Translations under genes and position numbers: made by a program | Assembly (NCBI GenBank): GCA_019058315.1 | Contig: JAHPZH010000003.1 | Location: 620,451-684,450 of the forward strand | Length of the DNA: 64,000 nt | From: Candidatus Helarchaeota archaeon | GTDB lineage: Archaea; Asgardarchaeota; Lokiarchaeia; Helarchaeales; RDOG01 | Direction of reading: 5' to 3' | In this document: positions 3,205 through 42,177 of the stretch, one piece after another | How positions within the stretch are numbered: the first letter of the stretch is position 1 | Layout: every line of letters begins with the position of its first letter | The notes under the pieces: model-generated | The model's input: the letters and a program-made list of their open reading frames with translations, nothing else | Databases searched by the model: none | Told to the model about the DNA's origin: nothing

Positions 3205-3236
3205 AGGATGAAGGTTATATTACTGGGGATAATTAA

Positions 3237-5210
3237 ATGACTAGTGTTTTTTCTAAATTACCTTTTGAAGTGGAAAAATTCTTCCCCTTTGAAAAACTAA
3301 GACCTGGACAATCAATGTTGGCTAAAGAAATTTATTATAGTGTCCTTTCTAGAAAAAATGTGGTCATTGAAGCATCAAATGGTCTGGGCAAGACAATTAC
3401 TTCATTAATAGCCCTCCTTCCGATAGTGGAAAAGGAAAATAAAACTTTAATCTACTGCACTAGAACACATAGCCAAATGGAAAGGGTGCTGGAAGAACTT
3501 AATCGCATTCGTCAAGTAAAAAAATGGAAAATTACGGGAGTAAGTTTACAAGGCAGAACCGAAATGTGCATTAATCCCCAAATTCAATTAGCAGCTTTAA
3601 ATACCGCTGATGCCATGAATCTTTGTTCCACACTTCGTAAAAATAAGAATTGTCCTTGGTTTGAAAATTTGAAAAATAGCTCTGTATTGATCAATAAATT
3701 ACGGGGGTTTCCAATTTCCGCAGCACAAATGATCAATATTGGGAGAAAATTTAATATATGCCCATATTTTCTAGCACGGACTTTAATAAAACAGGCTCAT
3801 ATAGTTGTAACAACCTATTTATATATAATACATCCTGCAATACGCCAAATTTTCCTAAACGATATTGAAGTTCCCCTTTCTGAATGTATACTATTATTCG
3901 ATGAAAGCCATAATTTGCATGATCTAGTAATGCAGATGGCATCGGATTATGTTTCAAAGATCTCCTTGGAAAGAGCTTTAAGCGAATTTCATAATTACAT
4001 GTTCAGTAACGATACTGTTGAAGAATTTTTAACAAGATTCCATCGTTTACTTGAAGATAAAGGTTCATTCTATAAAGGTAATTATGGAGAAGAAGAATTT
4101 CCCGTTGGTAAAAGGGAGATTAAGGAAATTCTTAATCAATATAGTGATAATCATTTGGAACTAGCTGAATTAATAATCCAATTCGGAAAATCAGTTCGCA
4201 ATAAAAGAATGAAAGCGGGACATCCCTCAAGATCTTCCCTCTACAAATTCGGTCAGTTTCTTATCACGTTAATACAGACTATTGATGATAAAAAGTTTCT
4301 ACATGAATATGCTTACTCAGGATCTAAAAAGAAGTTAAAAATAAAATATTATATAAAATGTTTGGATGCAAGACCATTATTAAATGAATTAGCAGAAGCA
4401 AGGGCAATAGTTTGTCTTTCAGGGACACTGGAACCTATTGATGCCTATTTAGATCTATGTGGTTTTTCTAGATTTACTACTACTTCAAAAGTTCTTCCTT
4501 CACCCTTTCCAGCAAATCATCTTTTAATAATAACTGTTCAAAGTGTTGATACAAAGTATTATAACAGGACTCCAAGCAATTATAAGATGTTCAAAGAACG
4601 CTGCATAGAGGTTGTGAAAAATACCCCTAATAACACGGGTATTTTTTGTGCTTCCTACGGAGTCTTAGAGGGAGTGTTAAATGCCGGTCTATATGATGAC
4701 GTTGAGACTCTAGGGAAAGAATTATTCATTGAACAAGCGGATTTAACGAGTAAGGATAATGAGTTAATGATCCAAAATTATAAAGAAATTGGACGAAATG
4801 GAGGCAGTGCAGTGTTAGCTGGTGTGTGTGGAGGTCGAAATTCCGAAGGTGTCGACTTTCCAGGACCAGAGATGAATTCGGTTGTTATAGTGGGACTTCC
4901 ACTCGCTAAACCTACATATACATTGGAAGCATTGCAGAAATATTATCAGGAACAATTTGGAGGGGATAAAGGAAGAGAATATGGTTATTACTTGCCAGCA
5001 TTAAGAAAGTCAAACCAAGCGGCTGGTAGACCCGTTAGGAGGTTGATAGATAAGGGTGCAATTGTTTTTTTGGATGAGCGATATGCATTTCCCTATTACA
5101 AACGTTATTTATCTTGTTGGATTCGAGATTCTATGATTACAATCTTGAACCAAAAAGGAATTCTAGAAGAAGAAATAAAGAATTTTTATCAGAATAGAAA
5201 TTACTTGTAA
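3237..5210 (+). CDS. xpd: XPD/Rad3-family Fe-S 5'-3' DNA helicase
   Basis: Q motif LRPGQ, Walker A ASNGLGKT, four Fe-S Cys (MCIN, NLCS, NCPW, ICPY), DESH box, SGTL, SEGVDF, QAAGRPVR. Confidence 0.92.
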   Translation: MTSVFSKLPFEVEKFFPFEKLRPGQSMLAKEIYYSVLSRKNVVIEASNGLGKTITSLIALLPIVEKENKTLIYCTRTHSQMERVLEELNRIRQVKKWKITGVSLQGRTEMCINPQIQLAALNTADAMNLCSTLRKNKNCPWFENLKNSSVLINKLRGFPISAAQMINIGRKFNICPYFLARTLIKQAHIVVTTYLYIIHPAIRQIFLNDIEVPLSECILLFDESHNLHDLVMQMASDYVSKISLERALSEFHNYMFSNDTVEEFLTRFHRLLEDKGSFYKGNYGEEEFPVGKREIKEILNQYSDNHLELAELIIQFGKSVRNKRMKAGHPSRSSLYKFGQFLITLIQTIDDKKFLHEYAYSGSKKKLKIKYYIKCLDARPLLNELAEARAIVCLSGTLEPIDAYLDLCGFSRFTTTSKVLPSPFPANHLLIITVQSVDTKYYNRTPSNYKMFKERCIEVVKNTPNNTGIFCASYGVLEGVLNAGLYDDVETLGKELFIEQADLTSKDNELMIQNYKEIGRNGGSAVLAGVCGGRNSEGVDFPGPEMNSVVIVGLPLAKPTYTLEALQKYYQEQFGGDKGREYGYYLPALRKSNQAAGRPVRRLIDKGAIVFLDERYAFPYYKRYLSCWIRDSMITILNQKGILEEEIKNFYQNRNYL

Positions 5211-5372
5211 TACTGTAACATATTTAGTTAACCCATGGAGAATATCCTTAAGGGTAATAATCTTCAAAATTTCATGAAGACTTAGTAGATTCTTCTTTCT
5301 AATTTAAAATAAATTTTTTAACTTGTAATAGATCTTAAATCAAAAAATTTGTAAAAATATATTTTTTAAATT

Positions 5373-6542
5373 CTACTCTTTTAAAGCTCTTAAGATTAGA
5401 TCGGTAATGTCAATTACGTTCAGTGATGTATCTGTCTTTTTGGCAGCATCTTTTAAATTTTTCAAGCAAAAAGGACAGTTTGTTGTAAGAATATCAGCAT
5501 TAATCTCTTTAGCTTCTTGAATTCTATCGACTCCAATTTCTAATGCTAATTCGGGAAAACCACTTTTAACACCTCCACCTGCACCACAGCACCAAGTATT
5601 TTCCCTATTTCTTTTCATTTCGATGAGTTTTAACTTAGGAATATTTAGGAGTATATTTCTAGGAGCATCATAAATTCTAGAAGAATGACTAAGATGGCAA
5701 GGATCATGATATGTGACAATTTCATTAGTCTCATTTTCAAATTTTAATTTTCCATCTTTTAATAATTGTTCAATGAATTCTGTAATGTGTAAAATTTTAA
5801 ATGGTAATTCACCAAGTATATCAAAATAGTCATTTTTTATCGTTTTATAGCATCCAGCGCAATGTGTAATTACAATTTTAGCTCCTGCATTTTTTATAGC
5901 TTCCACATTCTGACCTGCCAGTTCTCTCGCTAAAGTTTTTTTGCCAATCCTTAGAGCAATACTTCCACAACATTTTTCATCCTCACCAAGAATTCCGAAT
6001 TCAACATTGGCTTTCTCTAATATTTTAATCACATTATCTATGATACTAGGCATTCTATAACTTCCTGTACATCCAATGAAGAAAATAATTTCGGCATTAT
6101 TTGGAATTTTTTTATCCTTTAACCAATTTATGCGTTCTATATGTTTTTCCATATACGGATTAAATTCTTTTTGACACCAATCCAATATTTCTTTATGCCT
6201 TGGTAAGATATATCCATTTTCTAACAGATCTTCTCGAAATACCTCCCATAATTTTATATGATCTAACCAATAAGAATTTGGTAAATTTATGCAAGGATCA
6301 TAACTGTTATGACAAATTTCTTTACAAGAACCACATGTAGTGCATTTGAAGAAGTTTTCTGCAATTTCTTTACTAAGCTCTAATCTACCTTCAAGTAAAC
6401 CTTCTAATACTCTAAATCTACCTCTCGCATGTGTTGGTTCAAAACCAGCAGTATGTTCATAGATTGGGCAGACACCATATCGTCCTACACTTGGACGGTA
6501 CCCAATTCTGCAGTCTCCAATACCTGAACATGAATATATCAT
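5373..6542 (-). CDS. Fe-S oxidoreductase with two CCG domains (GlcF/GlpC/HdrD-like)
   Basis: CTTCGSCKEIC ferredoxin motif, EKCCG, YHDPCHL, WCCGAGGG, CPFC. Start uncertain (see findings). Confidence 0.88.
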   Translation of the reverse strand: MIYSCSGIGDCRIGYRPSVGRYGVCPIYEHTAGFEPTHARGRFRVLEGLLEGRLELSKEIAENFFKCTTCGSCKEICHNSYDPCINLPNSYWLDHIKLWEVFREDLLENGYILPRHKEILDWCQKEFNPYMEKHIERINWLKDKKIPNNAEIIFFIGCTGSYRMPSIIDNVIKILEKANVEFGILGEDEKCCGSIALRIGKKTLARELAGQNVEAIKNAGAKIVITHCAGCYKTIKNDYFDILGELPFKILHITEFIEQLLKDGKLKFENETNEIVTYHDPCHLSHSSRIYDAPRNILLNIPKLKLIEMKRNRENTWCCGAGGGVKSGFPELALEIGVDRIQEAKEINADILTTNCPFCLKNLKDAAKKTDTSLNVIDITDLILRALKE

Positions 6543-6587
6543 TTTCTCATATTTTCTTAGATTAATTAATTTATCATTTGGAATTTT

Positions 6588-8093
6588 TTATTCACCATCC
6601 ATCCCTAATTTGTATTTACCAGGAGAAAGAATCCCTTTTGGATCTAAAGTTTGTTTAATATTCTTTAAAAATTCATAAAATTGTTCTGAAAAAGCACCTG
6701 CATTTATTAAAGCTCTTGAATATCTTAAACCTGTCATATATGGCATAAAACCATTTTTTATCAATGCCTCCGAGCAGGAATCCCACAACTCTCCATTTAA
6801 TTTCCTAAATTCAGGTTTATTCCAAACTACTAAACCCATTACAGCATCTATCATTGTGTGTTCAGACAATCCAAAGAAAGTTCCTATTGCTGGAATGGCT
6901 TTTGCGGCATTTATTTTAAGGTCATTATCTTTTACCCAATTAGACATTTCCTTTAAGAGAATCGGATATTGATGCATAGACACATACCCATCTGCAGATT
7001 GACCAACGCTTCCTGGTCCTAATGCACCCCATCCCATATGCGCAAATTGCCAATATCCATTTTTTTCATGTACCCAATTATAAAATTCATTAAAATCAAG
7101 TTCTTCAATTCCATTTTCATTTTTGGTTATTTGGGTAACAATCTTGATGTTTTCTTCTAACTGTGCTTCAGTATCGGCTATAATTGAGTATGAAATAATA
7201 GGTCGTTTCCGTGGATTAATTTCATTTAATTTTTCATAAATCGGTGGTAATTGAGGAAGAATTTTAGTCGATTGAGCAATTACCCAGGAAGAATCAAAAA
7301 ATATCGCTTGATATATTCCTAAATTACTCTTTTTACGACAATTTAAAAATATTTTAAGAGTTTTTTCTACAGGTCTTTTTTTAACAGTAAATGAATGACT
7401 AACTAAATAATTGGGTTTTTTATAAATATTCAATGATGCTTCAGTTTTGATTCCCATTATTCCATTATCGCCTAAAAAAATACCTAACAAATCGGGTCCG
7501 AAACCATGTCTACTGAACGGTTTGGTAATATACTTACTCGCTCCTGAGCCTATTTCTATAATGTCTCCTTTTTTATTTGGTAAAACAACTTTCAATCCCA
7601 CACAATTTTTTGTTACTGGACCATACATTGTACTGCCTTCACCATAACTATTATTACTTAATCCTCCACCAATAACGGCAGACATTCCGCTTTCAGGACC
7701 AATATTTCCTGTATAAAAGCCTCTTTTCATCAAAGAAGTATTCAATTGAGCCCATGTTATTCCACACTGCGCTCTAACGGTCATTATTTCTTCATTTATT
7801 TCTAAAATCTTATCCATTCTCGTTGTATCAATTACAATTCCTCCTGGATTATATGGAACGATACCCTGTAGAAGATCTGCACCTCCTCCTCGCGGAATTA
7901 TTGGAATTCTCTCATTGTATGCAATCTTGACAATTTCAGAGATCTCCTCTGAGCTTTCTGGGCGTACAACAAAATCGGGTCGATTTTCTTCCACTACAGC
8001 ATCTACACCTCTTGAATAACTTTCTCTAATGTATTCTGCATCAGTGACAAATTCAGCTCCAACAATATTTCTTAATGAGCCAAGGATATTCAT
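6588..8093 (-). CDS. FAD-linked oxidase (GlcD/D-lactate dehydrogenase-like, VAO/PCMH family)
   Basis: PDFVVRPESSEEI, IPRGGG, IGGGLSNN, GIMGIKTE, C-terminal DPKGILSPGK. Confidence 0.88.
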   Translation of the reverse strand: MNILGSLRNIVGAEFVTDAEYIRESYSRGVDAVVEENRPDFVVRPESSEEISEIVKIAYNERIPIIPRGGGADLLQGIVPYNPGGIVIDTTRMDKILEINEEIMTVRAQCGITWAQLNTSLMKRGFYTGNIGPESGMSAVIGGGLSNNSYGEGSTMYGPVTKNCVGLKVVLPNKKGDIIEIGSGASKYITKPFSRHGFGPDLLGIFLGDNGIMGIKTEASLNIYKKPNYLVSHSFTVKKRPVEKTLKIFLNCRKKSNLGIYQAIFFDSSWVIAQSTKILPQLPPIYEKLNEINPRKRPIISYSIIADTEAQLEENIKIVTQITKNENGIEELDFNEFYNWVHEKNGYWQFAHMGWGALGPGSVGQSADGYVSMHQYPILLKEMSNWVKDNDLKINAAKAIPAIGTFFGLSEHTMIDAVMGLVVWNKPEFRKLNGELWDSCSEALIKNGFMPYMTGLRYSRALINAGAFSEQFYEFLKNIKQTLDPKGILSPGKYKLGMDGE

Positions 8094-8482
8094 AATTATC
8101 TCCTATTTTTAAATTATTTTTTGTTTTATATCATCTGCTTTTTAAAAAATGATGTTATTAAATATTTCTAAAATGGTTTTTAATAAAAAGACTATAACCA
8201 GAAATATTAAGACGAACTTTTAACTTTTTGGTTCGAATCTATATTTGTAGAGAAAGGTTATCGCGGTTTTCCGACAAATTGAAATCTTCTAACTATTTTT
8301 AAACAAAATAATACTTTAATCAACATCTCCTATTTTTTTAATCTTAATCAACTGTTCAAATATTTAAATTCATCAATTAAAAACAGTTTTAAAATCTTTA
8401 ATCGGATTCTTTCTATCTCCATAACCTTTTTAAAGGGTTCATCCTACCCGATGAAAATTATAACCTTTAAATGTAGATTTGT

Positions 8483-10243
8483 ATGTCACAAATAAATAAT
8501 TCAAAATCCTCATTAAGCATACCAAATACGAAAACCATTCATTTTCTTAAAGCTGCCAATTCCTATGTTTTAAATGAAAATTTTAAAAAAGGCCAGACAA
8601 CCACACTTCCCACAAAGATAGCAAACTACTTCCTAGCAAATAAAATTGCGGAAGAAGTCATTGAAAAAAAAGTAAGAACTGACTATGAAAGAATCAAAGA
8701 TAAATTGGAAGATAAAGAAGAAGAAAATAACGAAAAACCAAGATATGTCCGACATCCTCTAATTATTGAAAACACAATTGAAGCAAGACTATACCAAGAG
8801 GTCAGTTTTGCTGAAACAGTCAAGAAAAATTCCCTTGTAATTTTACCTACAGGACTAGGCAAGACAATAATTGCCGTCTTAAGTTCAGTTTATTGGCTAT
8901 CTCAAGATAAAACCAATAAAGTAATCATGTTTGCACCCACTAGACCGTTATTGGACCAGCATTTTGAAAATTTTTCTAAGTGGCTTAATTTGATGGATAA
9001 TGAAATTGTCCAGATCACAGGAAAAACATACAAAAAAAAGCGAGCTAAAATGTTTGAGAATGCCAGAATGATATTTATGACCCCCCAAATTACCCTTGAC
9101 GATTTCGATTTAAAAGATGTGGCTTTAATGATTTTTGACGAGTGTCATCGAGCTGTAAGGAGATATAGATATGTCAGTAACGCTGAAAAATATTTTATCG
9201 AGGCAACCAATCCCCATATTCTCGGATTGACTGCAACACCTGGCACACCAAAGAAGATTCTAAGTGTCATGCGAAACCTAAAAATAAATAAAGTTAGTCT
9301 GGCCAATGAGGAAACAGACACTGTAAAACCATACACTCATCAAATATACGAGGATTATGTAAGAATTACACTCCCTCCAGAATTAATGAAACTTCGTAAC
9401 TTCATTAACAATTCGCTAAAACGGAAATTGTCTATTTTAAGCCATCATCCACTTGTCAAAAAATATGTGGAAGATAAATACAGAATCAATCCCCACGATC
9501 TTTCACGGATTGTAAAGATGCATATGGGAACCATGGTTTCAGTTAAACCTATTTTGATGCAGGTACTTAGTCTTACCTATTTATTGAATCTTGTCGAAGC
9601 TCAATCCATAAGAGCTTTGGAAAATAAGTTGATCGATCTGCAAGGGTCTAGAAATCCAATTTATCAAGAGATAAATTCCATATTGACTGACTTAAGAAGA
9701 AAAAATATAGAACATCCTAAACCTAAAATAGCATCAAATATTGTCCAAAATTACTGCAAAAACCATGAAGATTCAAGAGTTCTAGTCTTTGTTCAATATC
9801 TGGATAGTGTTGATATTGTCTTGGAGGAATTACAGGAAAAAGGACTAAAAGTAAATAAATTAGTCGGACAAAAGACCATGAGTCAGGATTTACAAAGAGA
9901 AATATTGGAAAAATTTAGAAATGGAGAGTTCCAAGTGCTAGTAGCAACCTCGGTAGCAGAAGAAGGATTGGATATAGCACAATGTGACCTAGTGGTTTTT
10001 TATGATTGTATACCCTCAGGTATTCGAACAGTTCAAAGGCGAGGTAGGACCGGGAGACGTCGTGCTGGGATGTTAATTTATCTTTATACAGAAGGTACTT
10101 GGGAGGAAAGTTTTATTTATATATCAAGAAAGCGGATTAAAGAGACAAATCATATTTTAAAGCTCATGGAACGACAGGACGATCCGCTAGATTTTTTAAG
10201 GGAGTATTTACATTCAAAAAATAAGAAAATGAATTCGTATTAA
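8483..10243 (+). CDS. hef: Hef/FANCM/Mph1-like SF2 helicase with no C-terminal ERCC4 nuclease domain
   Basis: EARLYQ, LPTGLGKT, APTRPL, DECHRA, LGLTATPG, HPK, TSVAEEGLDI, QRRGRTGR. Ends about 50 aa after motif VI. Confidence 0.88.
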   Translation: MSQINNSKSSLSIPNTKTIHFLKAANSYVLNENFKKGQTTTLPTKIANYFLANKIAEEVIEKKVRTDYERIKDKLEDKEEENNEKPRYVRHPLIIENTIEARLYQEVSFAETVKKNSLVILPTGLGKTIIAVLSSVYWLSQDKTNKVIMFAPTRPLLDQHFENFSKWLNLMDNEIVQITGKTYKKKRAKMFENARMIFMTPQITLDDFDLKDVALMIFDECHRAVRRYRYVSNAEKYFIEATNPHILGLTATPGTPKKILSVMRNLKINKVSLANEETDTVKPYTHQIYEDYVRITLPPELMKLRNFINNSLKRKLSILSHHPLVKKYVEDKYRINPHDLSRIVKMHMGTMVSVKPILMQVLSLTYLLNLVEAQSIRALENKLIDLQGSRNPIYQEINSILTDLRRKNIEHPKPKIASNIVQNYCKNHEDSRVLVFVQYLDSVDIVLEELQEKGLKVNKLVGQKTMSQDLQREILEKFRNGEFQVLVATSVAEEGLDIAQCDLVVFYDCIPSGIRTVQRRGRTGRRRAGMLIYLYTEGTWEESFIYISRKRIKETNHILKLMERQDDPLDFLREYLHSKNKKMNSY

Positions 10244-10357
10244 TTTACGTTGATAATATAGTTATCAGTATTTGCTACATAACAAAATTTCAAATTTCGA
10301 TGGTGAAAATTAAAGTAGAAATCATGAAAGACAAATTTTAAATCTTATATCTTTCAG

Positions 10358-10894
10358 ATGGTTTTACTAAAGGGTGATTGTAGAATGAAGGATTTAAAAC
10401 CAGAACGAAAAATTCAAGTTTATACGGGTGTAGTAGCTCTATTTGGTGGAATTTTTTTTACTATTGTAGGATTGGACTATCGAATATCTCCATGGAATAT
10501 ATTTCATACATACATAACAGAACCTCCTTGGCTATTATTGGGGTTAATTTATTTGTATTTTGGGTGTGTTGAAATAATTCAGTACCAATATATAAAATCT
10601 CACTATCTGCAATATCCTAGTAATGATCTATGTGATCTATGCGGTGAACATGTAGAAAAGATAAATATAAGAGGGTATTCAGGGTTCAGACTTATATTAT
10701 GCAAAAAATGTCATAAGAAAGTCTTAACGATTAATGGAATAGGTTTAGAGATCTTATTTCTTATGTTAATTCTATTACTCTTTTTTATATACCCCAGACT
10801 TGCTGATTCGTATAAAATAATTGGATTTTATATGTTTCTTGGCATTGCAGTCGGGATTCCTCCAATCATTATTTTTCTAATTCGAAGATATTAA
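10358..10894 (+). CDS. 4-TM membrane protein with central CxxC...CxxC zinc ribbon
   Basis: Four hydrophobic segments flanking CDLC...CKKC. Confidence 0.7.
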   Translation: MVLLKGDCRMKDLKPERKIQVYTGVVALFGGIFFTIVGLDYRISPWNIFHTYITEPPWLLLGLIYLYFGCVEIIQYQYIKSHYLQYPSNDLCDLCGEHVEKINIRGYSGFRLILCKKCHKKVLTINGIGLEILFLMLILLLFFIYPRLADSYKIIGFYMFLGIAVGIPPIIIFLIRRY

Positions 10895-11189
10895 GCTTTT
10901 AAATTTTTATTTTATCGAAAAATCATAAATGCTTAAAAATCTATAACATTGTTTTAATTCAAATTAATAGTTAAAGACATTTAATTTGATTTTATTTTTT
11001 ATTACTTCTTTATTCCTATATTGTTTATAAGAATACCAAATTTATAAATTTATCTTATATTAATTAATCCCTCCTGTCTATATGGCAAGTTACTAGCTCT
11101 ACACCCAGTTTTGAATTTTTTACAAGAATAATATTTATAAAGGATTCATCATGCTTGGCTATTTTAAAATTTTTTTAGGAGTAAAAACC

Positions 11190-12233
11190 ATGAGTTTCGC
11201 GAAAAAATTTGATTTAGAATTAGATGATCTTCCGAGCATGACACCTCGAATTTCCAAGATATTAAAGCAAAATAGAATAACTTCCGTATCAACATTAGCT
11301 GCAACTAGCCTAAGGGAGCTGGTGGGACTTTATATTGACAGTGATACCGCTCAGACACTAATTGATGAGGCAGACGCAACAATGAGGCAAAGTGGATTTG
11401 GTTTTGTAATGGGATCAAAACTGTTAGATGAAGTTGATCAAGTTGAAGTTTTAACCACAGGTTGTAAAAGCCTAGACGTACTTTTAGGTGGAGGATTAGA
11501 CACCCAAAGATTATATGAATTTTATGGTCCCAATGGTGTCGGAAAGACTAATTTTCTTCATCAACTCATATGCACAGCCATGTTACCAAAAAGTAAAGGA
11601 GGTTTAGCCTCACGGGTGGTCTATATTGATGCAGAAGGTAATTTTAGCACCAAGCGAATTAGGATGATAGCCCCTGAATTCGATCTGAACGTTAATCAAG
11701 TGATAAAAAATATCCCTTTAATAAAGATCCACAACATAAGCGAGCTATTAAGCACATTAGAACATCATTTATATCCCGAAATGGAACAAACTGGAGCAAG
11801 GGTAGTTCTATTAGACAGTATAACCTATAATGTCCGTGGGGAATATATAGGAGAAAAAAATTTGCCTATCAGACAAGGAACACTTGGCAAAATAGCTCAT
11901 GCATTGAAAAAAGCATCACAAGCATTCAATGCAGTTGTAGTTGTGGTAAATCAAATAACGAAAAACCCCAAGACTGATGAAGTGACCTATTCTGGTGGCA
12001 ATGTTCTTGGACATGCAGTACAAGTGAGAGTTTCTATGACCAAGGCAGAAAAAGAGAGTAATGACTTGTATAAAAAAGATAGTACATCTCATAAAATACG
12101 GTTTTTTGTAGATAAAGCTGTCGATTTGCCAAGACAATCTTGTATCGTAATGATGGACAGTAGGGGTTTTCGGGATATTGAACCAGGATCCCAAGATGCT
12201 CAGGAAGAAGTAAAAGCAAAACAAGAGGTATAA
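11190..12233 (+). CDS. RadA/Rad51-family recombinase paralog with N-terminal HhH-like domain
   Basis: TTGCKSLDVLLGGGL, Walker A GPNGVGKT, YIDAEGNF, Walker B VLLDS, VVVNQ, GGNVLGH. ATG at 11190 follows a GGAG SD, preferred over the track's 11151. Confidence 0.88.
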   Translation: MSFAKKFDLELDDLPSMTPRISKILKQNRITSVSTLAATSLRELVGLYIDSDTAQTLIDEADATMRQSGFGFVMGSKLLDEVDQVEVLTTGCKSLDVLLGGGLDTQRLYEFYGPNGVGKTNFLHQLICTAMLPKSKGGLASRVVYIDAEGNFSTKRIRMIAPEFDLNVNQVIKNIPLIKIHNISELLSTLEHHLYPEMEQTGARVVLLDSITYNVRGEYIGEKNLPIRQGTLGKIAHALKKASQAFNAVVVVVNQITKNPKTDEVTYSGGNVLGHAVQVRVSMTKAEKESNDLYKKDSTSHKIRFFVDKAVDLPRQSCIVMMDSRGFRDIEPGSQDAQEEVKAKQEV

Positions 12234-33286: not shown

Positions 33287-34117
33287 GTGATTCCGAGATT
33301 GCCAAAGAAAAAATCTGAAGATGACGAACTCATGGAGTTAGGGATTGGAGTAGGTCAGGATCAATTTTATTTAAATCTACCATATTTAGCACTTATTGAC
33401 ACTGATTTATGGAAAAGGAGAAATCCTTGGTCCTTTGATATTAAAACCCTTTTACCTGACTTTTTTGAACGAATGAAAGGAAATTTGAAATTTAAAATTT
33501 TAGGTAAAGCACTCCTCTCGGCAACGCAACTCCATCATGCAAAGATATTATGGTTAATTTATAGAGAAGAAAAGGAAAAAGAAAAGCAAGAAATAGAAAA
33601 GAAACAGAGAGAATCAAAGGAGCTTCCAAGCCTAAAAGTTCCAATCCGTCGTTTTTCAGAAGAAATAAGTAAAGAGGAGCTAATGGATCAGTTAATTAAG
33701 GTTCTACTCGATGATAAAAAAAGGACTGAACGAAGATTAAAGCGAAAGAAAAAAGATAAGGAAAAACAAATCCGAGAACAAAAACGCAAACGCCGTGTAC
33801 CTTTAATAGAGACCATGAAACCTAAGGACTTTGATTATGAAGTAGATGCTGATCGGATGAATGTTAAAGAACGAAATGAACAAGTATACAGTATGGCAAT
33901 TAAATTATTGAAAGAAGCTGCAGAAGCGGGAGAAGATGAAATTAGGTTTGAAAAACTTTTAAAAGCGCTTACAGAAATGGCATCAGATCCAAGAATATTA
34001 ATGGCACGGGTTCTTCTCTCAGTACTGTTTCTTATTTCAGACGGTCTTTTGTATGCTGAACAAGATATTGACACAAAAAGAATTTTTATAATGTTTCCAA
34101 TTGAAGCAGCAGCTTAA
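33287..34117 (+). CDS. scpA: Kleisin ScpA
   Basis: NPWSFDI...FFERM...GKALLSAT N-terminal kleisin motif. C-terminal WH with VLLSVLFL...LYAEQ. Adjacent to scpB and near smc. Confidence 0.8.
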   Translation: MIPRLPKKKSEDDELMELGIGVGQDQFYLNLPYLALIDTDLWKRRNPWSFDIKTLLPDFFERMKGNLKFKILGKALLSATQLHHAKILWLIYREEKEKEKQEIEKKQRESKELPSLKVPIRRFSEEISKEELMDQLIKVLLDDKKRTERRLKRKKKDKEKQIREQKRKRRVPLIETMKPKDFDYEVDADRMNVKERNEQVYSMAIKLLKEAAEAGEDEIRFEKLLKALTEMASDPRILMARVLLSVLFLISDGLLYAEQDIDTKRIFIMFPIEAAA

Positions 34118-34145
34118 TTTTTTTAAAAGGATATGAGCTAATAAT

Positions 34146-34991
34146 ATGCCAAATTTAGAACATGTTAAACTCGTGGAAGCTAGTCTTTTTATTGCAGGAC
34201 GTTCAATTAAAACGGATAATTTACTCACGCTTATTGATGGGAAAGGGAAAGAGGAATTAAATAACATTATAGAACAAATCTCAAAAAGTTTAGAGAAACG
34301 TAATAGTTTTATCGAAATCGTAAAAATTGAAGACGAATATATGATGCGGGTTAAGCCTGCAATTAGAAAAGAGTTAGGGGATATTGAGACTAGAAAATCG
34401 CTTCCGGATGAATTTATAAAAATATTAGCAATAATTGCTATGAAACAGCCTATTAAATATGGAGACATAAGGAAAATTTATTCTGGAAAAAATCTAAAGG
34501 AAAATGTCTCGGAATTATTGAGGAAAGGATTTATTCAAGTTAGAAAAGAAAAAAGAACTAAATTCTTAACAACTACACCTCATTTTGCTAATGTTTTTAA
34601 TTTAGATCCAGCAAATATGAAAAGTGAAATTCTTAGAATTCTAACAAAACGGCTTTCACAGCGTGCAGTTAAAGCACCAGAGATGATTAAGAGGGACGAA
34701 AAAGAGGATAAGGAAGTTTTAACGGAAGTTGAAATAAAGGAAATTGAAGAAAAATATTATGATTTAATGGAAAAGTTAGAAAAAGAAAGGGAAGAGGAGA
34801 GAAAACGTTTAGAAGAAGAAGAAAAAAAGAAAGCTGAAGAAGCAGCACTTATAAAAAATCTAGTTTTAGATCCCATGGCAAGTATATTTAAGCCTAAAAA
34901 AGAAGATAAAGAAGAAGATATGCCTAAAAAGGAAGATAAAGAAGAAGAAAAGGAAGTCACAGAGAAAAATTCTGAAATAAAAGAGAGTTAA
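34146..34991 (+). CDS. scpB: Kite subunit ScpB, paralog 1 (charged C-terminal extension)
   Basis: LVEASLFIAGRSI, LAIIAMKQPI, ELLRKGFI, TTPHFANVFNL. Confidence 0.85.
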   Translation: MPNLEHVKLVEASLFIAGRSIKTDNLLTLIDGKGKEELNNIIEQISKSLEKRNSFIEIVKIEDEYMMRVKPAIRKELGDIETRKSLPDEFIKILAIIAMKQPIKYGDIRKIYSGKNLKENVSELLRKGFIQVRKEKRTKFLTTTPHFANVFNLDPANMKSEILRILTKRLSQRAVKAPEMIKRDEKEDKEVLTEVEIKEIEEKYYDLMEKLEKEREEERKRLEEEEKKKAEEAALIKNLVLDPMASIFKPKKEDKEEDMPKKEDKEEEKEVTEKNSEIKES

Positions 34992-35106
34992 TAAATTATA
35001 AAAGTAATCAAATTAAGTACAATAAGGATAATTTCATAATCAATCAATATATTTTTTCATCTCAAAGAGGGAGATTGAAATTAAAAATATTAAAAGAGAA
35101 GAGCTC

Positions 35107-35562
35107 GTGGATGAAAAAGCTCAAACCATTTTGTTACAAGCAACATACCCAGAAATAGTCTCGGTTCTTAAAAGAAGCATGGGGAAGGAAGCTTGTGTAG
35201 AAATTTTAAGAGATCTTGGAGCTATTGCGGCAAAAACAGTATCAGAATATTGGTTACCTAAGGGAAAAAACATTCAAGATATGGTTAAGGAAATTTTCAA
35301 AAAAATTCTAGATAATAAAGATATAAAAATCGTTAAAGAAAAAGGACAAAATTTTTTAGTTCAAGATTTTGAGTGTAGACTATGTTGGGAAGGAGTAGAA
35401 GAAGAGGATATTAACTATTGCGTATCAACATCCGCCTTTATAGAGGAAATATTAAATGTTATCAGGAAATCATATGTTTATCTACCCTCAGTCAAAGTTT
35501 CCACAATCAAATCTAAAGCAGCAGGAGCAGACCATTGTGAACATTTAATAGAATTCTTATGA
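35107..35562 (+). CDS. V4R/Bet3-fold domain protein
   Basis: LRDLG helix, ECRLC...YC...FIE, C-terminal KSKAAGADHCEH. Confidence 0.7.
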   Translation: MDEKAQTILLQATYPEIVSVLKRSMGKEACVEILRDLGAIAAKTVSEYWLPKGKNIQDMVKEIFKKILDNKDIKIVKEKGQNFLVQDFECRLCWEGVEEEDINYCVSTSAFIEEILNVIRKSYVYLPSVKVSTIKSKAAGADHCEHLIEFL

Positions 35563-35571
35563 GGGATAAAT

Positions 35572-36213
35572 TTGCCAGGTAGAAAAAAGTTAGGACTTTT
35601 AAGGAAAGCATTAGCAAAAGTAGGCAAACATGTAATGTGGACGTTTTCTAAAAAACTTAATAGGTTATTCCTTCATGGCTGCTGGAAAAGCGTTATATTA
35701 AAATTTTCGGAGTTAAATGAGAATGATGCTAATAAAGCTACTGAGATCTGGTTTGAGATAGGGAAGGCAGCAGGAGATAGCTTAATGTATGCTTGGTTAG
35801 ATAGAGGAAAAATGATTTTCTCTAAAAAGCTTGAGGATATGAAAGTTGTGGTTGAAACTGCTTGGTATAGCTTTTTAGGCGATCATACAGATGATGTAAG
35901 ATATTATGAAGCAGGTGATGGACATGAGGTTCCTAGAATCGTATGGCGATTCTGGAAATGTTGGATGTGTTCTGGAGTTTTTGAAGATGAAGACCTCAAA
36001 CATTTAGATTTAGAAAATCTTCAGGAATTTGGATATGGTGCGGCAGCAGCTGGGATTTTTGAAACAGCACTTCAAATGGTCCAAGATTATGTTGATAATC
36101 CATATCGAGTAGTAGTTCGAGAAACTAAATGTTTCTGCAGAGGGGATGATTATCAAGAATTTACAGCATATTTCTATCCAAAAGAAGAACCAGAATCATC
36201 CTTTGAGATATAA
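35572..36213 (+). CDS. V4R-domain protein
   Basis: FEIGKAAG, CWMC, AAGIF, VRETKCFCRGDDYQEF (V4R C-terminal signature). Confidence 0.78.
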   Translation: MPGRKKLGLLRKALAKVGKHVMWTFSKKLNRLFLHGCWKSVILKFSELNENDANKATEIWFEIGKAAGDSLMYAWLDRGKMIFSKKLEDMKVVVETAWYSFLGDHTDDVRYYEAGDGHEVPRIVWRFWKCWMCSGVFEDEDLKHLDLENLQEFGYGAAAAGIFETALQMVQDYVDNPYRVVVRETKCFCRGDDYQEFTAYFYPKEEPESSFEI

Positions 36214-36220
36214 TGGATAA

Positions 36221-37381
36221 TTAAAAGAAATTATCCAGCCAAGGTTTCATTTCCAAAATTAGAGGTTCTTTTGATATAAATTCGGGATTATCTGGACTGA
36301 CATAAGTTAAAAAGAACTTTTCTTTATCTTTGGTGACAATCCTCTCAAGAGTGCAATATTTTTTATTTTTTAATGCAAGGATTAATTTTAGAGCTTGGTC
36401 AGGAAATATATTTAATTCTTCGCCAAGAATAGTATTAAAAGCAAAATTTTTTGCAAGCTCCTTTTCGTCATCTCCGTTTTCGGCTATGCAAATGCCGGTT
36501 TCGTTATAAATTGAAATATATTTTGCATTTACTTTAGACTCAAAATTCATTAGAATATTTTTTATTATAGTATTAACTGGAGAAAGTTCTCTAAGACTTT
36601 CACTAAAAGCAGAGAAGATGCTGTTAAAATTAAAAATACTGGTTACATGGGTAAAAAATCGAATCTCTCCAAAGATTTTTTGGATTTCTTTGCTAATTGC
36701 TGTTTTTTCTTTTTTAATATCTGGTGGTTTCATTTTGTCTGATTTATGTAATAGAACAACTGAAACGGGAGCTTCCTCTAAATATTTGAAAATTTCAACA
36801 ATATTTTTTAAATATTCCAATGCTGCATTTGTTCTTTTAGTATCGGATATATCAATAACAAAGACAAAGAGACTTGTGTAGCCAAAATGTTCTTTTGGTT
36901 CAGATAGATATTTTTTTCTATAGATATCTTGTCCTCCGAGATCCCATATACTTAAATTATAGCCGAATAGTTCAATATTTTCATATTCTACACCTTTTGT
37001 TGGCTTTAGTGATTTGGTTTCTTTTCCATCTTTTGCCTCTTGTGGATTAAGGAGAGTCTGAATGATTGAAGTCTTACCAGCAGCGTCAATACCAGCAATA
37101 ACTATTTTCTTTTCGGTAGTTTTCGCCCCTGTTGCAACTTCATTAATTATACGAGCGGCAGTAGTTAATTTCTCTATTTTTAAGGATTCTACAGACTTTA
37201 ATAGTTTATCAGGACTTTCAATTTTAATTAAATCAGCAATTTTGGCAATATTGTTTTGATTTAGCACTTTAGCGGTATCTTCATCACAGCCTTTCAAAGA
37301 AGTTATATCTAATTCAAGAACTTTTTGTAAATCAGCTGGAACTTTTTTAACATTTAATAGGGCAGCAATTTTAGAGGACAT
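36221..37381 (-). CDS. Arf/Rag-like GTPase with N-terminal HhH-like domain and C-terminal roadblock/longin-like domain
   Basis: DITSLKGCDEDTAKVL (HhH-like), GIDAAGKTS, KPTKG, WDLGGQ, LLHKSD, VTSIF. C-terminal ISIYNETGICIAE. Confidence 0.82.
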   Translation of the reverse strand: MSSKIAALLNVKKVPADLQKVLELDITSLKGCDEDTAKVLNQNNIAKIADLIKIESPDKLLKSVESLKIEKLTTAARIINEVATGAKTTEKKIVIAGIDAAGKTSIIQTLLNPQEAKDGKETKSLKPTKGVEYENIELFGYNLSIWDLGGQDIYRKKYLSEPKEHFGYTSLFVFVIDISDTKRTNAALEYLKNIVEIFKYLEEAPVSVVLLHKSDKMKPPDIKKEKTAISKEIQKIFGEIRFFTHVTSIFNFNSIFSAFSESLRELSPVNTIIKNILMNFESKVNAKYISIYNETGICIAENGDDEKELAKNFAFNTILGEELNIFPDQALKLILALKNKKYCTLERIVTKDKEKFFLTYVSPDNPEFISKEPLILEMKPWLDNFF

Positions 37382-37470
37382 AGCAATCCCTTATTTTTTA
37401 AAATCAATGATGTAATATATTTATACAAGATTATTTTTATATTTTTAAATTATTTTTTACAGTGCTTTAA

Positions 37471-38502
37471 ATGGCAAATGAGAAAGAACAAGACGAAGAT
37501 GCAGTAGAATCTCAAGACATTGAGGATGAAGATGAAGAAATAGAAAAAATGTTAGAAGAATTAGAGGAAGAAGAATTAGAAGAAGAAGGATTAGAGAAAG
37601 AAGAAATAATGGAGACCCAGCCAGAGATTAAAACGGATTTGGAAAAGGATATAGATATAAAAGACATTGAAATTACCTCAGAGATGGAACTCCCTATTCA
37701 TGAACAAGAATCACCACCTAAGACACAAAATTCGACTGAAGAAACATCAATAATGGCTCAGGTTTCAAAAGCTAAAGATTTAGAACAATTAATTGAAACA
37801 GAGGAACAAAAAAGCATTGAAGGTGAGGAATCCTTAATGTCTGATCAAGCACTTGATGAATTAGAAGCCATAGAAGATAAATCAGCTAAAGATCAATTTA
37901 AAGACCTTCATGCATATATTGAAGCCATTTTATTTGAGGTTGGAAAACCTCTTAAAGAATCAGAACTTGTTGACTTATTATTTGAAAAATATAAAGCTGA
38001 TAGAAATAGGATTAGATGGGGGTTAAGAATAGTAATGAGAGCTTTAGAAGCCCAGAATAGTTCAATCCAATTAATAAACCCCACTAAGGATTTTTGGTCT
38101 TTTCAACTTCACAGAGAGCTATCAGATGACTTTTTAGACAAAATAGAGAAATTTATCCCTGAAGAGGAATTTATTTCTAAAAGAGAAACCGTATTTTTAA
38201 CCGAAATAGCTTATAGACAACCAGTTACTACAACAGATATATTAAAGATTTTAGGTGCTGATGGATATGATTATATACGCTCTCTAGAAGAAAAAGATCT
38301 TATATTTATGACAAAAGAAGGGCAATCTAATATCTTAAGAACCACCGAAAAATTTGCACAAATTTTTGGTTTTGATACACAATTAAGAAGTTTAAAACTT
38401 CAACTAGTTTGGAGGCTTAAAAAATTAGCTAGATCCGAAGCAGCAAGAGATAAAGCTACTTTAGCTCTATTAAAGAAAGATAGAGAAAAGTACGAATCTT
38501 AA
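37471..38502 (+). CDS. scpB: Kite subunit ScpB, paralog 2 (about 140-aa acidic N-terminal extension)
   Basis: YIEAILFEVGKPL, LTEIAYRQPVT, LEEKDLI, RTTEKFAQIFG. Directly upstream of smc. Confidence 0.85.
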   Translation: MANEKEQDEDAVESQDIEDEDEEIEKMLEELEEEELEEEGLEKEEIMETQPEIKTDLEKDIDIKDIEITSEMELPIHEQESPPKTQNSTEETSIMAQVSKAKDLEQLIETEEQKSIEGEESLMSDQALDELEAIEDKSAKDQFKDLHAYIEAILFEVGKPLKESELVDLLFEKYKADRNRIRWGLRIVMRALEAQNSSIQLINPTKDFWSFQLHRELSDDFLDKIEKFIPEEEFISKRETVFLTEIAYRQPVTTTDILKILGADGYDYIRSLEEKDLIFMTKEGQSNILRTTEKFAQIFGFDTQLRSLKLQLVWRLKKLARSEAARDKATLALLKKDREKYES

Positions 38503-38607
38503 TTTAATAAAAATAGAGAAATGACAAAATAATATCATAGTAATTAAATATTTAAATTATTATTGGAATTAGATTAATTAAAATGGTTACCTTTTTAAAA
38601 TTGGTGA

Positions 38608-41600
38608 ATGGAAAAGATGACATTTATCAAACGCATCGATATGACAGGATTTAAGTCATACGGAAGAGGAACTATATCTTTAGGATTTGGTCCTGGATTT
38701 ACGGGAATAATTGGACCAAATGGTTCAGGAAAAAGTAATATAGTAGATGCAATTTCCTATACATTAGGGGAATTGAGCTCGAAAAGTATGCGAGCGAAGG
38801 ATTTAAGGGATCTCATATATTCAGGAACTGGAGGTGATAATCCTGCCGATTTCGCTTCCGTTAATATTGTGTTTGATAATTCCGATAAAAAGATTCCGGT
38901 TCCTTTTGATGAAGTTATGGTACAAAGAGATATAAAAAGAAAGGGAGGAGGTTCCGTTTATAGGTTTAATGGGAAACGATCTACTAGAACTGAGATCATG
39001 GATAAATTAAAGATTGCCAATATTGATGTAAAAGAGGGGTTTAATTTAGTGTTGCAGGGGAGAATTGCAGAACTTGCTGCTATGAATCCCGATGAACGTA
39101 GGGAATTAATTGAGGATTTAGCGGGGACAAATGAATTTGATGAAAAAAAAATTGCGAGTATAAGTGAATTAGAAAAGGCTGAAATAAAACTAAGTGAATT
39201 AGAATTATTAATTAATGAAACCGAGACTAATGTAAAGAGATTGGATAAAGAAAAAAAAGATGTGGAAGAATGGGAGCTAGTTGTAGAACAAATATTTGAT
39301 AATAAAACCCAACTTTTATCTTTTCGACATGGAAATTTAGTTGAAGAATTAAAGGGATTCCAAACCAAAAGTGACGAGTTACTTAAAGAAATAAAGGAAG
39401 TAGAAGAGGAGAAAAATAAAAAAATTAAGATCTTAGACGAAGTAAATAAAAGTATTGAGGATGTCAAAAATAAAATAAATAAAAAACAGACCGACCTTGA
39501 AAATGTTCAAGCAGATATTTCTAATTTAAAATCAACCATTACTGGGCTCAAAAGGGATGTAACACATAGAGAAAAACGAATTAAAGAAATGGAGCAAGAA
39601 CAAGAAGATACTAAATCAAGAATTCAAAATATTAAAAAGAATCAAGACAAATTAGGAAGTGAAGTTACAGATATTGAAAGTAAGTTGGGTGTACTTGGAA
39701 AAAAGAGGGATGAAGAAAGAGCAGAACAAGAAAGATTAAATAAATTGATTCAAAAAAGTCAAACGCAATTTGAAACTCTTCAAACCCGTGCTACGGAAAT
39801 TCAAAAACAAATAGAAATGAAAACTAAAAAATTAAATAATTTAGAAATTCAAAAATCAATGAAATTATCTGGAGCAGAAATAAAACAAAATACATATGAT
39901 TCCAGAAAGCGTGAATTGGAATCACGTAAAAGAACATATAATCAGAATTTAGAATCCCTTAAAGCTTTAGAATTAGAAATAGTTCAATCGAAAGAACTAC
40001 TTCAAGTAGCATCACATAGAGTTGACTCATCAGATTCTAAAAGATCAACATATGAAGAAAGATTAGAACAGTTATATGATTTAAAATCCAAATTGGAAAA
40101 AAACACCTCATCTCTTGAAGCAAAAATTGACACTATTCAGAGTTTTCAAGGAGGAGATACGAATCCTGTAATTAAAAAAATTATGGGAAAAAAGGAAAAA
40201 AATGAAATTGTTGGTATTATCGGCAGATTTGGCGATTTAATAAATCTTGATGAACTTGATCCTAATGATAAAGCAGCACTTATTCCTTATTTGAATACTA
40301 TTATTGTTGATAGCACATTAACTGCTGCTGAAGCAATTCAAATTCTTAAAGATGAGCAAATAGGATATGGTTCTTTTATCCCTCTAGAAGAATTAGGAGA
40401 AATAATAATTGGACAAAATCTTCCATTTAAATTCTTGGAGGATCTTGACAGAAAGATGAAGGCAACGGCATTTATTTTTAATGATACTGTTGTTACTGAA
40501 AATCTTCATTCAGCAATTGATCTATTTATTAAAAATATTGAAGAAAAGAAATATGGAACTCAAATTCTGACTTTACAAGGTGAGAAAATCTCTAGAGAGG
40601 GGATTATTTCTGGTGGTGCTAGTTTAGAATTTGCTGAAACTCAAATATTAGATTTAAAAAAGAAATTAGAAGAACAGCAAGGAGAAGTTGGCAAGATTAG
40701 TGAAGAACAGATTATAACCAAACAAAAACTTGCTAAATTAAATGACTTATTAGCTGAAGTTAAAAGAAAACAAGAAAATGTAAAACAGAATATAAAGAAT
40801 AAACAAGAGAAAATGGATAGTATAACTAAGCTGATTGAGGAAGATAAATTTCATATCAATAGAATTGAGCAAGAATTAGAATCTTTAAAATTGAATATTG
40901 AAGCGATTAATACCTTATCAGCGAATATTGAACGTGAAAAGTCGGAAACTGAAACATCTGTTGCAGTACTTAAAGAAGATAAGAAAGTTATTGACGATGA
41001 GATTGAAAAAACTGAGATGACTAAGCTTTTAGATTCTGTTCGTAAGGTAGAAAAAGAATTATCGAAATTAGAAATTGATTATAGTAAAAATGAAGCTATA
41101 AAGAGTGAAAAATTACAACAGATAAATGATATCCTCGATAAAAATATAAAAGAAAAAGAGTCTCAAGTTCAAAATCTAATCAAAGAAATTGAGCAAGCAA
41201 GAAAAGATATTGAAAAATTTAATAGTGAAAAAAATCAAGCTGAAAAAGATTTAACTGCTAAAACAAAGGGTGAAGAAGATTTTAAAAAGGAAATTCAAGA
41301 ACTTCAAGATTCTATTAGTACAAAGTTAAACGAGATAGAAGCGAAGCGAAATGAAAATACTGCTCTTAATAGAAGAATAGAAAGATTACGTGAACAAGTA
41401 GGTGAAATCAAAGTCAATCAAGAGAGAGTAAAAACAGAATTGAGTAATGTCCAAAAACAGATTGAAGAAGAAGAGATAGAATTGATTCAACTTAAGAAAG
41501 AGGTTGATGAAAAAAAGCTTGAAAGCAAAATTCGAGAACTTTTAGACAGAAAACGACAGCTTGAACCAGTTAATGCCCTTGCTATAAAGCAGTTCCATGA

Positions 41601-42177
41601 AGCAAATCAAAGATACCAAGATTTAAAATCCCGACACGAAGAACTTCAAGAAGAAAGAAAAATTATAGTTGATTTTATCAATAAAATAGAATATGAAAAA
41701 GAAAATGTATTCATGAAAATTTTTAACGAAATTAATAAAGAATTCGGTAAAATCTTCAAAATGATCGCTGGAGGTAATGCTTGGATGGAGTTGGAAAATG
41801 AGGAGAACCCATTTGAAGGTGGAATCACTATTAATGCCGAACCGCATGGTAAAAAAGTAAAATCTGTAAGAGCTATGTCAGGAGGCGAAAAATCATTAAC
41901 TGCATTATCTCTAATTTTTGCAATGCAAAAAGTCGAGCCTTCACCATTCTATATTTTAGATGAGATCGATGCTGCATTAGATGTCATGAATGTGAGACGT
42001 GTAGCAAAAGTAATTGAGAAGATGAGTAAAGAATCTCAATGTATCCTCATTACTCACAGAGATATTGCCATGAGATACGCCAATTTACTTTATGGTGTTA
42101 CAAATATAAAAGGGATCTCAAAAGTGGTTTCTGTTGAATTGTCTGATGAAAGCACACTTCGTGAATTAAGCTCTTAA
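38608..42177 (+). CDS. smc: Chromosome segregation protein SMC (condensin-type)
   Basis: GFKSYG, GPNGSGKSN, Q-loop VLQG, hinge GIIGRFGDLI...TLQGEKISREGIISGG, MSGGEKS, YILDEIDAALD, ITHR. Confidence 0.97.
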   Translation: MEKMTFIKRIDMTGFKSYGRGTISLGFGPGFTGIIGPNGSGKSNIVDAISYTLGELSSKSMRAKDLRDLIYSGTGGDNPADFASVNIVFDNSDKKIPVPFDEVMVQRDIKRKGGGSVYRFNGKRSTRTEIMDKLKIANIDVKEGFNLVLQGRIAELAAMNPDERRELIEDLAGTNEFDEKKIASISELEKAEIKLSELELLINETETNVKRLDKEKKDVEEWELVVEQIFDNKTQLLSFRHGNLVEELKGFQTKSDELLKEIKEVEEEKNKKIKILDEVNKSIEDVKNKINKKQTDLENVQADISNLKSTITGLKRDVTHREKRIKEMEQEQEDTKSRIQNIKKNQDKLGSEVTDIESKLGVLGKKRDEERAEQERLNKLIQKSQTQFETLQTRATEIQKQIEMKTKKLNNLEIQKSMKLSGAEIKQNTYDSRKRELESRKRTYNQNLESLKALELEIVQSKELLQVASHRVDSSDSKRSTYEERLEQLYDLKSKLEKNTSSLEAKIDTIQSFQGGDTNPVIKKIMGKKEKNEIVGIIGRFGDLINLDELDPNDKAALIPYLNTIIVDSTLTAAEAIQILKDEQIGYGSFIPLEELGEIIIGQNLPFKFLEDLDRKMKATAFIFNDTVVTENLHSAIDLFIKNIEEKKYGTQILTLQGEKISREGIISGGASLEFAETQILDLKKKLEEQQGEVGKISEEQIITKQKLAKLNDLLAEVKRKQENVKQNIKNKQEKMDSITKLIEEDKFHINRIEQELESLKLNIEAINTLSANIEREKSETETSVAVLKEDKKVIDDEIEKTEMTKLLDSVRKVEKELSKLEIDYSKNEAIKSEKLQQINDILDKNIKEKESQVQNLIKEIEQARKDIEKFNSEKNQAEKDLTAKTKGEEDFKKEIQELQDSISTKLNEIEAKRNENTALNRRIERLREQVGEIKVNQERVKTELSNVQKQIEEEEIELIQLKKEVDEKKLESKIRELLDRKRQLEPVNALAIKQFHEANQRYQDLKSRHEELQEERKIIVDFINKIEYEKENVFMKIFNEINKEFGKIFKMIAGGNAWMELENEENPFEGGITINAEPHGKKVKSVRAMSGGEKSLTALSLIFAMQKVEPSPFYILDEIDAALDVMNVRRVAKVIEKMSKESQCILITHRDIAMRYANLLYGVTNIKGISKVVSVELSDESTLRELSS

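Follow-up and report, generated by a model that had tools for sequence, protein, structure and literature searches.

Bacterial and archaeal Smc-ScpAB complexes carry a homodimer of the kite protein ScpB on the kleisin ScpA (PDB 3W6J and 4I98; archaeal ScpB 6JUV). The locus described here raises the question of what kind of complex is formed where a single smc and a single scpA gene are accompanied by two different scpB genes. It lies in a stretch of 64,000 nucleotides (nt; the window) of contig JAHPZH010000003.1 from a Candidatus Helarchaeota archaeon of the order Helarchaeales, whose assembly (GCA_019058315.1) comprises 5.79 Mb in 12 contigs and is 94% complete. An earlier reading of the sequence (the original prediction) had proposed an asymmetric Smc2-ScpA-ScpB1-ScpB2 complex. 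Of this proposal, the count of one SMC, one ScpA and two kites turned out to be conserved and makes a single asymmetric complex the simplest reading, while the heterodimer itself stays a prediction. We assign a probability of about 0.55 to a single Smc-ScpA complex with a mixed, i.e. heterodimeric, kite pair. The kite encoded next to scpA is called B1 (ScpB1, kite alpha), and the kite encoded next to smc is called B2 (ScpB2, kite beta).

Two different kites at one smc-scpA locus

All four genes (scpA, smc and two scpB genes) were recovered on the forward strand, exactly where the original prediction had placed them (Table 1). The start codon of B1 is found 28 nt downstream of scpA, and the end of B2 lies 105 nt before the start of smc. 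The pairs scpA-B1 and B2-smc are arranged as separate transcription units, and B2 is not adjacent to scpA.

Both kites matched the SMC_ScpB family PF04079, B1 with 88.7 bits over residues 9-154 and B2 with 72.1 bits over residues 149-306, and they share only ~24-29% identity with each other. The motifs EAxLF, IAxxQP and TTxxF, which had been noticed in both proteins, are all present in B1 as well as in B2. When profiles of the two kites were compared with solved chains, archaeal ScpB 6juv was the best match for both (E 2.2e-34 for B1 and E 2.5e-30 for B2), followed by bacterial ScpBs. No Nse1, MAGE or RING family was matched by the kites in Pfam up to E 10, and neither profile retrieved an Nse1, Nse3 or MAGE chain among the solved structures up to the same value. 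Both kites are members of the ScpB family with two winged helices.

The two proteins differ in what is attached to this core. B1 consists of a double winged-helix core (residues 1-175) and a mixed-charge K/E tail (residues 176-281). The tail, estimated earlier at ~110 amino acids (aa) with a PKKEDKEE duplication, measures 106 aa, of which 39 are D/E and 27 are K/R, and contains PKKEDKEE at positions 250 and 260. B2 has a very acidic N-terminal extension, for which ~140 aa had been predicted; the 118 aa before the domain envelope include 46 D/E and 10 K/R. Overall, the extension spans ~118-148 aa with a net charge of ~ -36. In addition, the core of B2 shows the signatures TKDxW and LTEIAYRQP and a C-terminal helix with LKxQLVWRLKK.

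The 276-aa product of scpA gave no Pfam match, PF02616 included, even at E 10. Its N-terminal domain matches the N-domain of Thermococcus ScpA (6ivh, E 1.7e-6). The C-terminal winged helix of its structure model found 4i99_C as top structural match (target template modelling score, TM-score, 0.85; root mean square deviation 2.2 Å), with further fold matches to Scc1-C (1w1w_E), Brn1-C and B. subtilis ScpA-C; the model has a mean pLDDT (predicted local distance difference test) value of 63 and the Foldseek E-values are weak (~0.01). Moreover, a profile built from its orthologues retrieves smc-adjacent ScpA genes in other Asgard genomes, several of which pass PF02616. The N-domain match, the kleisin fold of the C-domain and the profile that finds ScpA beside smc together identify this open reading frame (ORF) as the kleisin. 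The protein has a helical domain at its N-terminus and a winged helix at its C-terminus, joined by a long basic linker in which the motifs RKRRVPL and FDYEVDxDR are conserved. In a profile search of all ORFs, it was the only strong ScpA-type match in the genome.

The SMC protein matched SMC_N with 185 bits and the hinge with 26.1 bits, a weak match relative to the cut-off of 22.5. Walker A, signature and Walker B motifs can be read in its translation; the ATPase motifs are intact and the hinge has diverged. Its nearest solved relatives are Pyrococcus Smc heads (382 bits), followed by SMC2 (221 bits) and SMC4 (211 bits), and no SMC5 or SMC6 chain was among its solved-chain matches at E 1e-10. 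The locus holds one smc gene and no Smc5-Smc6-type pair. Sorting SMCs into SMC1-4-like and SMC5/6-like proteins by solved chains was given up as a criterion, as all three Asgard types tested match Smc/SMC1-4 first.

Conservation across Asgard archaea

In the Helarchaeales genomes G001, G005 and GCA_975963625.1, the genes occur in the order scpA-B1-...-GTPase (reverse strand)-B2-...-smc. Two fragmented assemblies agree with this order as far as they go: G006 carries scpA-B1 on one contig and B2-smc on another, and a contig of G003 holds smc, B2 and the GTPase gene and ends before the expected position of B1. In GCA_011365055.1 (family RDOG01), all four genes form a contiguous same-strand run, B2-smc-scpA-B1. 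A sister protein of B2 (P0146) and a B1-like protein (P0079) come from contigs too short to show their gene neighbourhood.

We searched 250 Asgard genomes with the B2 profile. Outside Helarchaeales, the best matches came from one family of Heimdallarchaeia (f25), where a short kite of 186-198 aa is directly followed by a long kite of 365-520 aa in all 14 loci examined. In the three loci with wide flanks, smc (~1190 aa) and scpA (~286 aa) lie upstream, with one reverse-strand gene between them and the kites. Two f25 genomes, one a single 3.16-Mb contig and the other 99% complete, each encode two kites and no more, together with a single long SMC and a single kleisin of the ScpA type. The co-occurrence of both paralogues, a check suggested with the original prediction, was thus found in Helarchaeales and in f25. 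The module occurs in three gene orders across these two distant Asgard lineages. Apart from the G003 contig, which ends before the B1 position, no beta kite in the genomes searched came from a locus without an alpha kite.

Other arrangements were seen as well. The f25 genome G199 has an additional operon (L037) encoding a long-type SMC of 1472 aa, a ScpA of 375 aa and a ScpB of 374 aa; it closely resembles the Lokiarchaeales operons and lies on a short contig (C70, 8.6 kb), so that both transfer and bin contamination are possible. Two genomes of another Asgard family, G046 and G098, each have two complete smc-scpA-scpB operons with one kite each (L052-L055). They follow the 'two complexes' pattern known from the literature, in contrast to the two-kite module.

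Orthologues of B1 are 37-62% identical, with one at 88%, and those of B2 46-85%, and all reading frames are intact. Mean column identity is 58% and 60% within the two kite groups. Three signatures shared by the beta kites have no counterpart in ordinary ScpBs: the first wing contains TKDxW, a further motif reads LTEIAYRQP, and a C-terminal helix carries LKxQLxWRLK. The acidic arm is nearly universal among beta kites. In Helarchaeales it is N-terminal with a net charge of -2 to -36, the -2 case being a sequence labelled partial by its source, and in f25 it is mainly C-terminal with a net charge of -22 to -67. An acidic extension has been conserved in the B2 lineage.

The alpha kites are bare, apart from the K/E tail in some Helarchaeales; the tail of B1 is missing in one Helarchaeales family and in the short kite of Heimdallarchaeia. 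Alpha-kite tails vary strongly even between close relatives. For instance, the B1 orthologue of GCA_011365055.1 (L059 14652-15812, forward strand) has a long low-complexity tail with ETE/AEKETE repeats.

Origin of the two-kite module

Kites were compared in a careful IQ-TREE analysis of 76 sequences and SMCs in a tree of 19 Asgard sequences. In the kite tree, B2 and the long kites of f25 form a clade with support of 100/98, and the short kites of f25 form a long branch of their own. When B1 and the short kites were constrained to group together, the tree was 2.3 log-likelihood units better than the free search, with a p-value of 0.55 in the approximately unbiased test (p-AU). In the SMC tree, all SMCs from two-kite loci group in a single clade (Shimodaira-Hasegawa-like approximate likelihood ratio test, SH-aLRT, 99), apart from the SMCs of single-kite operons and of the C3 type described below.

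A quick first tree had placed B1 beside the C3-type kite. This placement was set aside as an effect of rooting or of long branches, since ordinary Asgard ScpBs score higher with the B1 profile than with the B2 profile.

The window ScpA aligns end to end with the ScpAs of the Heimdallarchaeia two-kite loci at 29-30% identity. The ScpAs of both two-kite lineages share the linker motifs RRR..L and F.YE.D.DR, which are absent from single-kite ScpAs. The SMC clade, the clade of B2 and the long kites, and the ScpA alignment with its linker motifs argue for a single origin, so that the module appears to have descended from a common ancestor in both lineages; for B1 and the short kite, orthology is only not rejected. 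We accordingly delimit a provisional group, the two-kite Smc-ScpA module of Asgard archaea, which comprises an SMC of this clade, one ScpA with the linker motifs, one alpha kite, and one acidic-armed beta kite with the signatures. The window locus has all of these features.

A proposed single complex with a mixed kite pair

The reading that we prefer is a canonical Smc-ScpA of the prokaryotic kind in which two different paralogues of ScpB would take the kite position. B1, the alpha kite, would have stayed close to ordinary ScpB, and the beta kite B2 would represent a separate lineage with an acidic, presumably disordered arm. One alpha and one beta kite would pair via their N-terminal winged helices on a single ScpA chain, and this mixed pair would occupy the place of the ScpB homodimer of other prokaryotes. 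Both kites are thus expected to bind the window ScpA as well as each other. A kleisin contacts the two copies of a kite homodimer in different ways; therefore, duplication may have let each kite specialise for its own side of the kleisin, as Nse1 and Nse3 did on Nse4. The acidic arm of B2 may modulate the contact of the complex with DNA or chromatin, and the suggestion that such arms act as DNA mimics or histone-binding regions is speculative.

A more elaborate scenario would have an obligate asymmetric Smc-ScpA holocomplex in the two Asgard lineages, with a heterodimeric kite that arose independently of Nse1-Nse3, before or beside eukaryogenesis. In this scenario alpha would be structural, and the arm of beta would be a DNA mimic or histone binder that controls the entry of DNA or links loop extrusion to archaeal chromatin. 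We regard this full scenario as tentative and, taken as a whole, doubtful.

Several points weigh against a mixed kite pair on ScpA. Both the kite heterodimer and the binding of the kites to ScpA are predictions, and the clustering of the genes fits two alternative homodimers equally well. Six euryarchaeal ScpAs did not bind their ScpB in vitro, as reported by Jeon et al. (PMC7055376), which is the chief reservation about kite binding in archaea. The segment that binds ScpB in bacteria is said to be missing from archaeal ScpAs (PMC7055376), and in the window ScpA the stretch from helix 3 to helix 4 is also short. No natural alpha-beta kite fusion was found among 222 related proteins. Additional genes for kleisins or kites lie elsewhere in the source genome and in G001. 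In profile scores, the short kite of f25 lies nearer to generic ScpB than to B1, and its orthology with B1 is only not rejected. A complex prediction for ScpA with B1 and B2 speaks neither for nor against binding, as a control in which ScpA was replaced scored as high as the real set.

The foremost alternative, which we consider unlikely, is that B1 and B2 each form homodimers on the same Smc-ScpA. The two resulting complexes would be isoforms with different tasks or different control; one might carry the acidic arm and the other lack it. Such an arrangement would agree with the homodimeric state of solved prokaryotic kites (10.1101/2025.03.10.642339), including the 6juv dimer (PMC7055376), and with the fact that both paralogues retain, in their first winged helix, the motifs general to ScpB. 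The division into separate scpA-B1 and B2-smc transcription units in the window can be explained in the same way. However, the kites are adjacent in Heimdallarchaeia and all four genes lie together in GCA_011365055.1, as expected of subunits produced in a fixed ratio. Moreover, the short kite of Heimdallarchaeia is far from ordinary ScpB and the divergence of the two kite lineages is asymmetric, in line with a division of labour within one assembly.

Next in rank, and likewise improbable, is the explanation that only one kite, probably B1, belongs to the complex. The beta kite would then act off the kleisin, alone or on the SMC, perhaps as an acidic-armed winged-helix protein that binds chromatin or has a regulatory role. 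In its favour, the ScpB homologues of Euryarchaeota fail to bind ScpA and may have a separate function (PMC7055376), a C-terminal helix and acidic arms are specific to the B2 lineage, and B2 is not adjacent to scpA in the window. Against this, B2 and its relatives neighbour smc, scpA or the other kite at all loci seen, which cover three gene orders in two distant lineages, and none was found away from such loci in the genomes searched.

Other SMC systems of the genome

We consider it very improbable that the extra kite serves another SMC system, although further candidates are present in the genome. Contig C3 contains a second operon (L020, C3:660001-678000, 6766-11445) encoding an SMC of 1175 aa with a strong hinge, a kleisin of 220 aa with a weak match to the ScpA C-terminus, and a kite of 163 aa, which is the third PF04079 gene of the genome. 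The earlier statement that there is one smc and one scpA therefore holds for the locus and not for the genome, which has two hinge-bearing SMCs, two kleisins and three kites; a profile search of all genome ORFs added neither a kleisin of the ScpA or C3 type nor a clear kite to this count. A weak PF02616 match elsewhere in the genome proved to be GrpE rather than a kleisin.

The C3 operon is self-sufficient, with its own kleisin and kite. Operons of this type (L057, L058) stand alone in two genomes of another Helarchaeales family, in which B1 and B2 were not found, and two Heimdallarchaeia genomes that hold the kite pair encode just one long SMC and a single ScpA. The original prediction had named a second smc or scpA elsewhere as something that might account for the extra kite; because the C3 operon brings its own kleisin and kite, and its type stands alone elsewhere, this explanation fails. 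The other candidate would be a hinge-less SMC-like gene at C3:835 kb, a third SMC_N protein.

Least credible of all is a redundant or decaying lineage-specific duplicate, a possibility raised along with the original prediction: the tail length of the kites does vary greatly between orthologues, but frames are intact and cores conserved at all loci, and orthologues of B2 occur in a different Asgard class, which marks B1 and B2 as old, conserved paralogues.

Some details of these additional loci deserve mention. Upstream of the C3 operon are genes for a 540-aa AAA ATPase and for a 176-aa protein with a weak match to UFC1, the Ufm1-conjugating E2. In the third SMC-like set (L022, C3:831001-842000, 2428-8793), the hinge-less SMC_N protein has 953 aa and is accompanied by a protein of 487 aa that weakly matches a winged helix, one of 455 aa, and one of 221 aa with a marginal score against the kite profile (E 0.006). 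PADLOC made no Wadjet assignment at this locus. In addition to its two-kite locus, the sister genome G001 has an extra pair of a 249-aa ScpA-like and a 183-aa ScpB-like protein (L025, contig C109:52001-68000, 7554-8820, reverse strand), with no SMC within 16 kb.

Comparison with known SMC systems

The module resembles Smc-ScpAB in its single smc with canonical ATPase motifs, its ScpA-type kleisin, and its PF04079 kites nearest to 6juv. It differs in that each SMC and kleisin comes with two diverged kite genes where Smc-ScpAB has a single one, and in the beta kite with its acidic arm and extra conserved C-terminal helix. Furthermore, its ScpA is not matched by the Pfam model and carries linker motifs particular to the lineage, and the SMC hinge has diverged.

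The Heimdallarchaeia loci with tandem ScpB genes have an SMC, a ScpA and a beta kite that are orthologous to those of the window. In these loci the kites are adjacent after smc-scpA and the arm is mainly C-terminal, whereas the window has the split arrangement of scpA-B1 and B2-smc and an N-terminal arm.

According to textbooks and a current specialist statement, prokaryotic SMC kites are homodimers and a heterodimer occurs only in eukaryotic Smc5/6, where Nse1-Nse3 is the only established heterodimeric kite (10.1101/2025.03.10.642339). With Nse1-Nse3-Nse4 the module shares two different kite paralogues and one kleisin. In contrast to Smc5/6, however, its kites have no RING domain and no sequence link to Nse1, Nse3 or MAGE, and there is one SMC gene, which is nearer to Smc and SMC1-4. 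The proposal that the locus is an intermediate toward eukaryote-style subunit specialisation was not upheld. Because the kites are ScpB-like without an Nse1 or Nse3 match, the SMC resembles canonical Smc and SMC1-4 rather than SMC5/6, and there is a single smc gene, the B1/B2 pair is best regarded, on sequence grounds, as a parallel to Nse1-Nse3 and as neither its forerunner nor its homologue.

Another prokaryotic departure from the kite homodimer is known from Wadjet type II, where a tandem KITE unites four winged helices in one chain (10.1101/2025.03.10.642339). Both systems would place two non-identical halves on one kleisin. The Wadjet protein is derived from a fusion and belongs to a plasmid-defence SMC, whereas the present kites are encoded by two separate genes at a chromosomal Smc-ScpA locus, with no fused form among the proteins compared. 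The binary Smc-ScpA of Euryarchaeota has in common with the module the short helix 3-4 segment of ScpA and an N-domain similar to 6ivh. Unlike in Euryarchaeota, the kite genes here are tightly linked to scpA and smc, and a longer conserved linker precedes the C-domain of ScpA.

Our literature search on kite heterodimers and ScpB paralogs found no published description of this two-kite module. Van Hooff et al. (10.1101/2024.01.07.573240) proposed two SMC complexes in the TACK/Asgard ancestor, and assigned the three kite paralogs of some Asgard archaea to different SMC complexes. A table of that study lists, without comment, two ScpB-like kites together with a kite related to Nse1/3 for one Helarchaeales genome; for RDOG01 it lists none. 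We also mapped the Prometheoarchaeum gene numbers of the same study to genome G219, but dropped this comparison as the positions fitted only one of two loci.

A mixed pair, if real, would make this the first prokaryotic Smc-ScpAB with a heterodimeric kite, and would imply that the symmetry of the kite was also broken in the closest prokaryotic relatives of eukaryotes. It would refine the published scenario in which every extra Asgard kite has its own SMC complex (10.1101/2024.01.07.573240). The module would then offer a natural experiment on how homodimeric SMC accessory subunits turn heteromeric, in a four-protein system suited to asking why SMC complexes become asymmetric. The system also bears on the binding of kites by archaeal ScpA, which has been disputed since 2020, and on the role of acidic kite arms in a histone-containing cell.

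Neighbouring genes

The stretch between B1 and smc contains three further genes besides B2 (Table 1).

Table 1. Genes of the two-kite locus, with positions in the window.
Gene	Position	Strand	Basis or remark
scpA, kleisin, 276 aa	33287-34117	+	N-domain match 6ivh, C-domain fold, orthologue profile
Kite alpha (ScpB1, B1), 281 aa	34146-34991	+	PF04079, 88.7 bits
Small Cys-rich ORF	35107-35562	+	between B1 and B2
Small Cys-rich ORF	35572-36213	+	between B1 and B2
Gtr1/RagA-type GTPase, 386 aa	36221-37381	-	divergent neighbour of B2
Kite beta (ScpB2, B2), 343 aa	37471-38502	+	PF04079, 72.1 bits
smc, 1189 aa	38608-42177	+	SMC_N 185 bits, hinge 26.1 bits

The two small Cys-rich proteins have no Pfam match. 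As they have no counterpart in the loci of G001 or G005, we place their genes outside the SMC module.

A close orthologue of the GTPase occurs at the same position in G001, G003, G005, GCA_975963625.1 and RDOG01, i.e. in the loci where this stretch is assembled. In the Heimdallarchaeia locus L034, the only one of this lineage scanned with Pfam, two genes for small Ras-family GTPases lie 3' of the long kite. This GTPase neighbourhood could reflect a functional link or merely conserved synteny.

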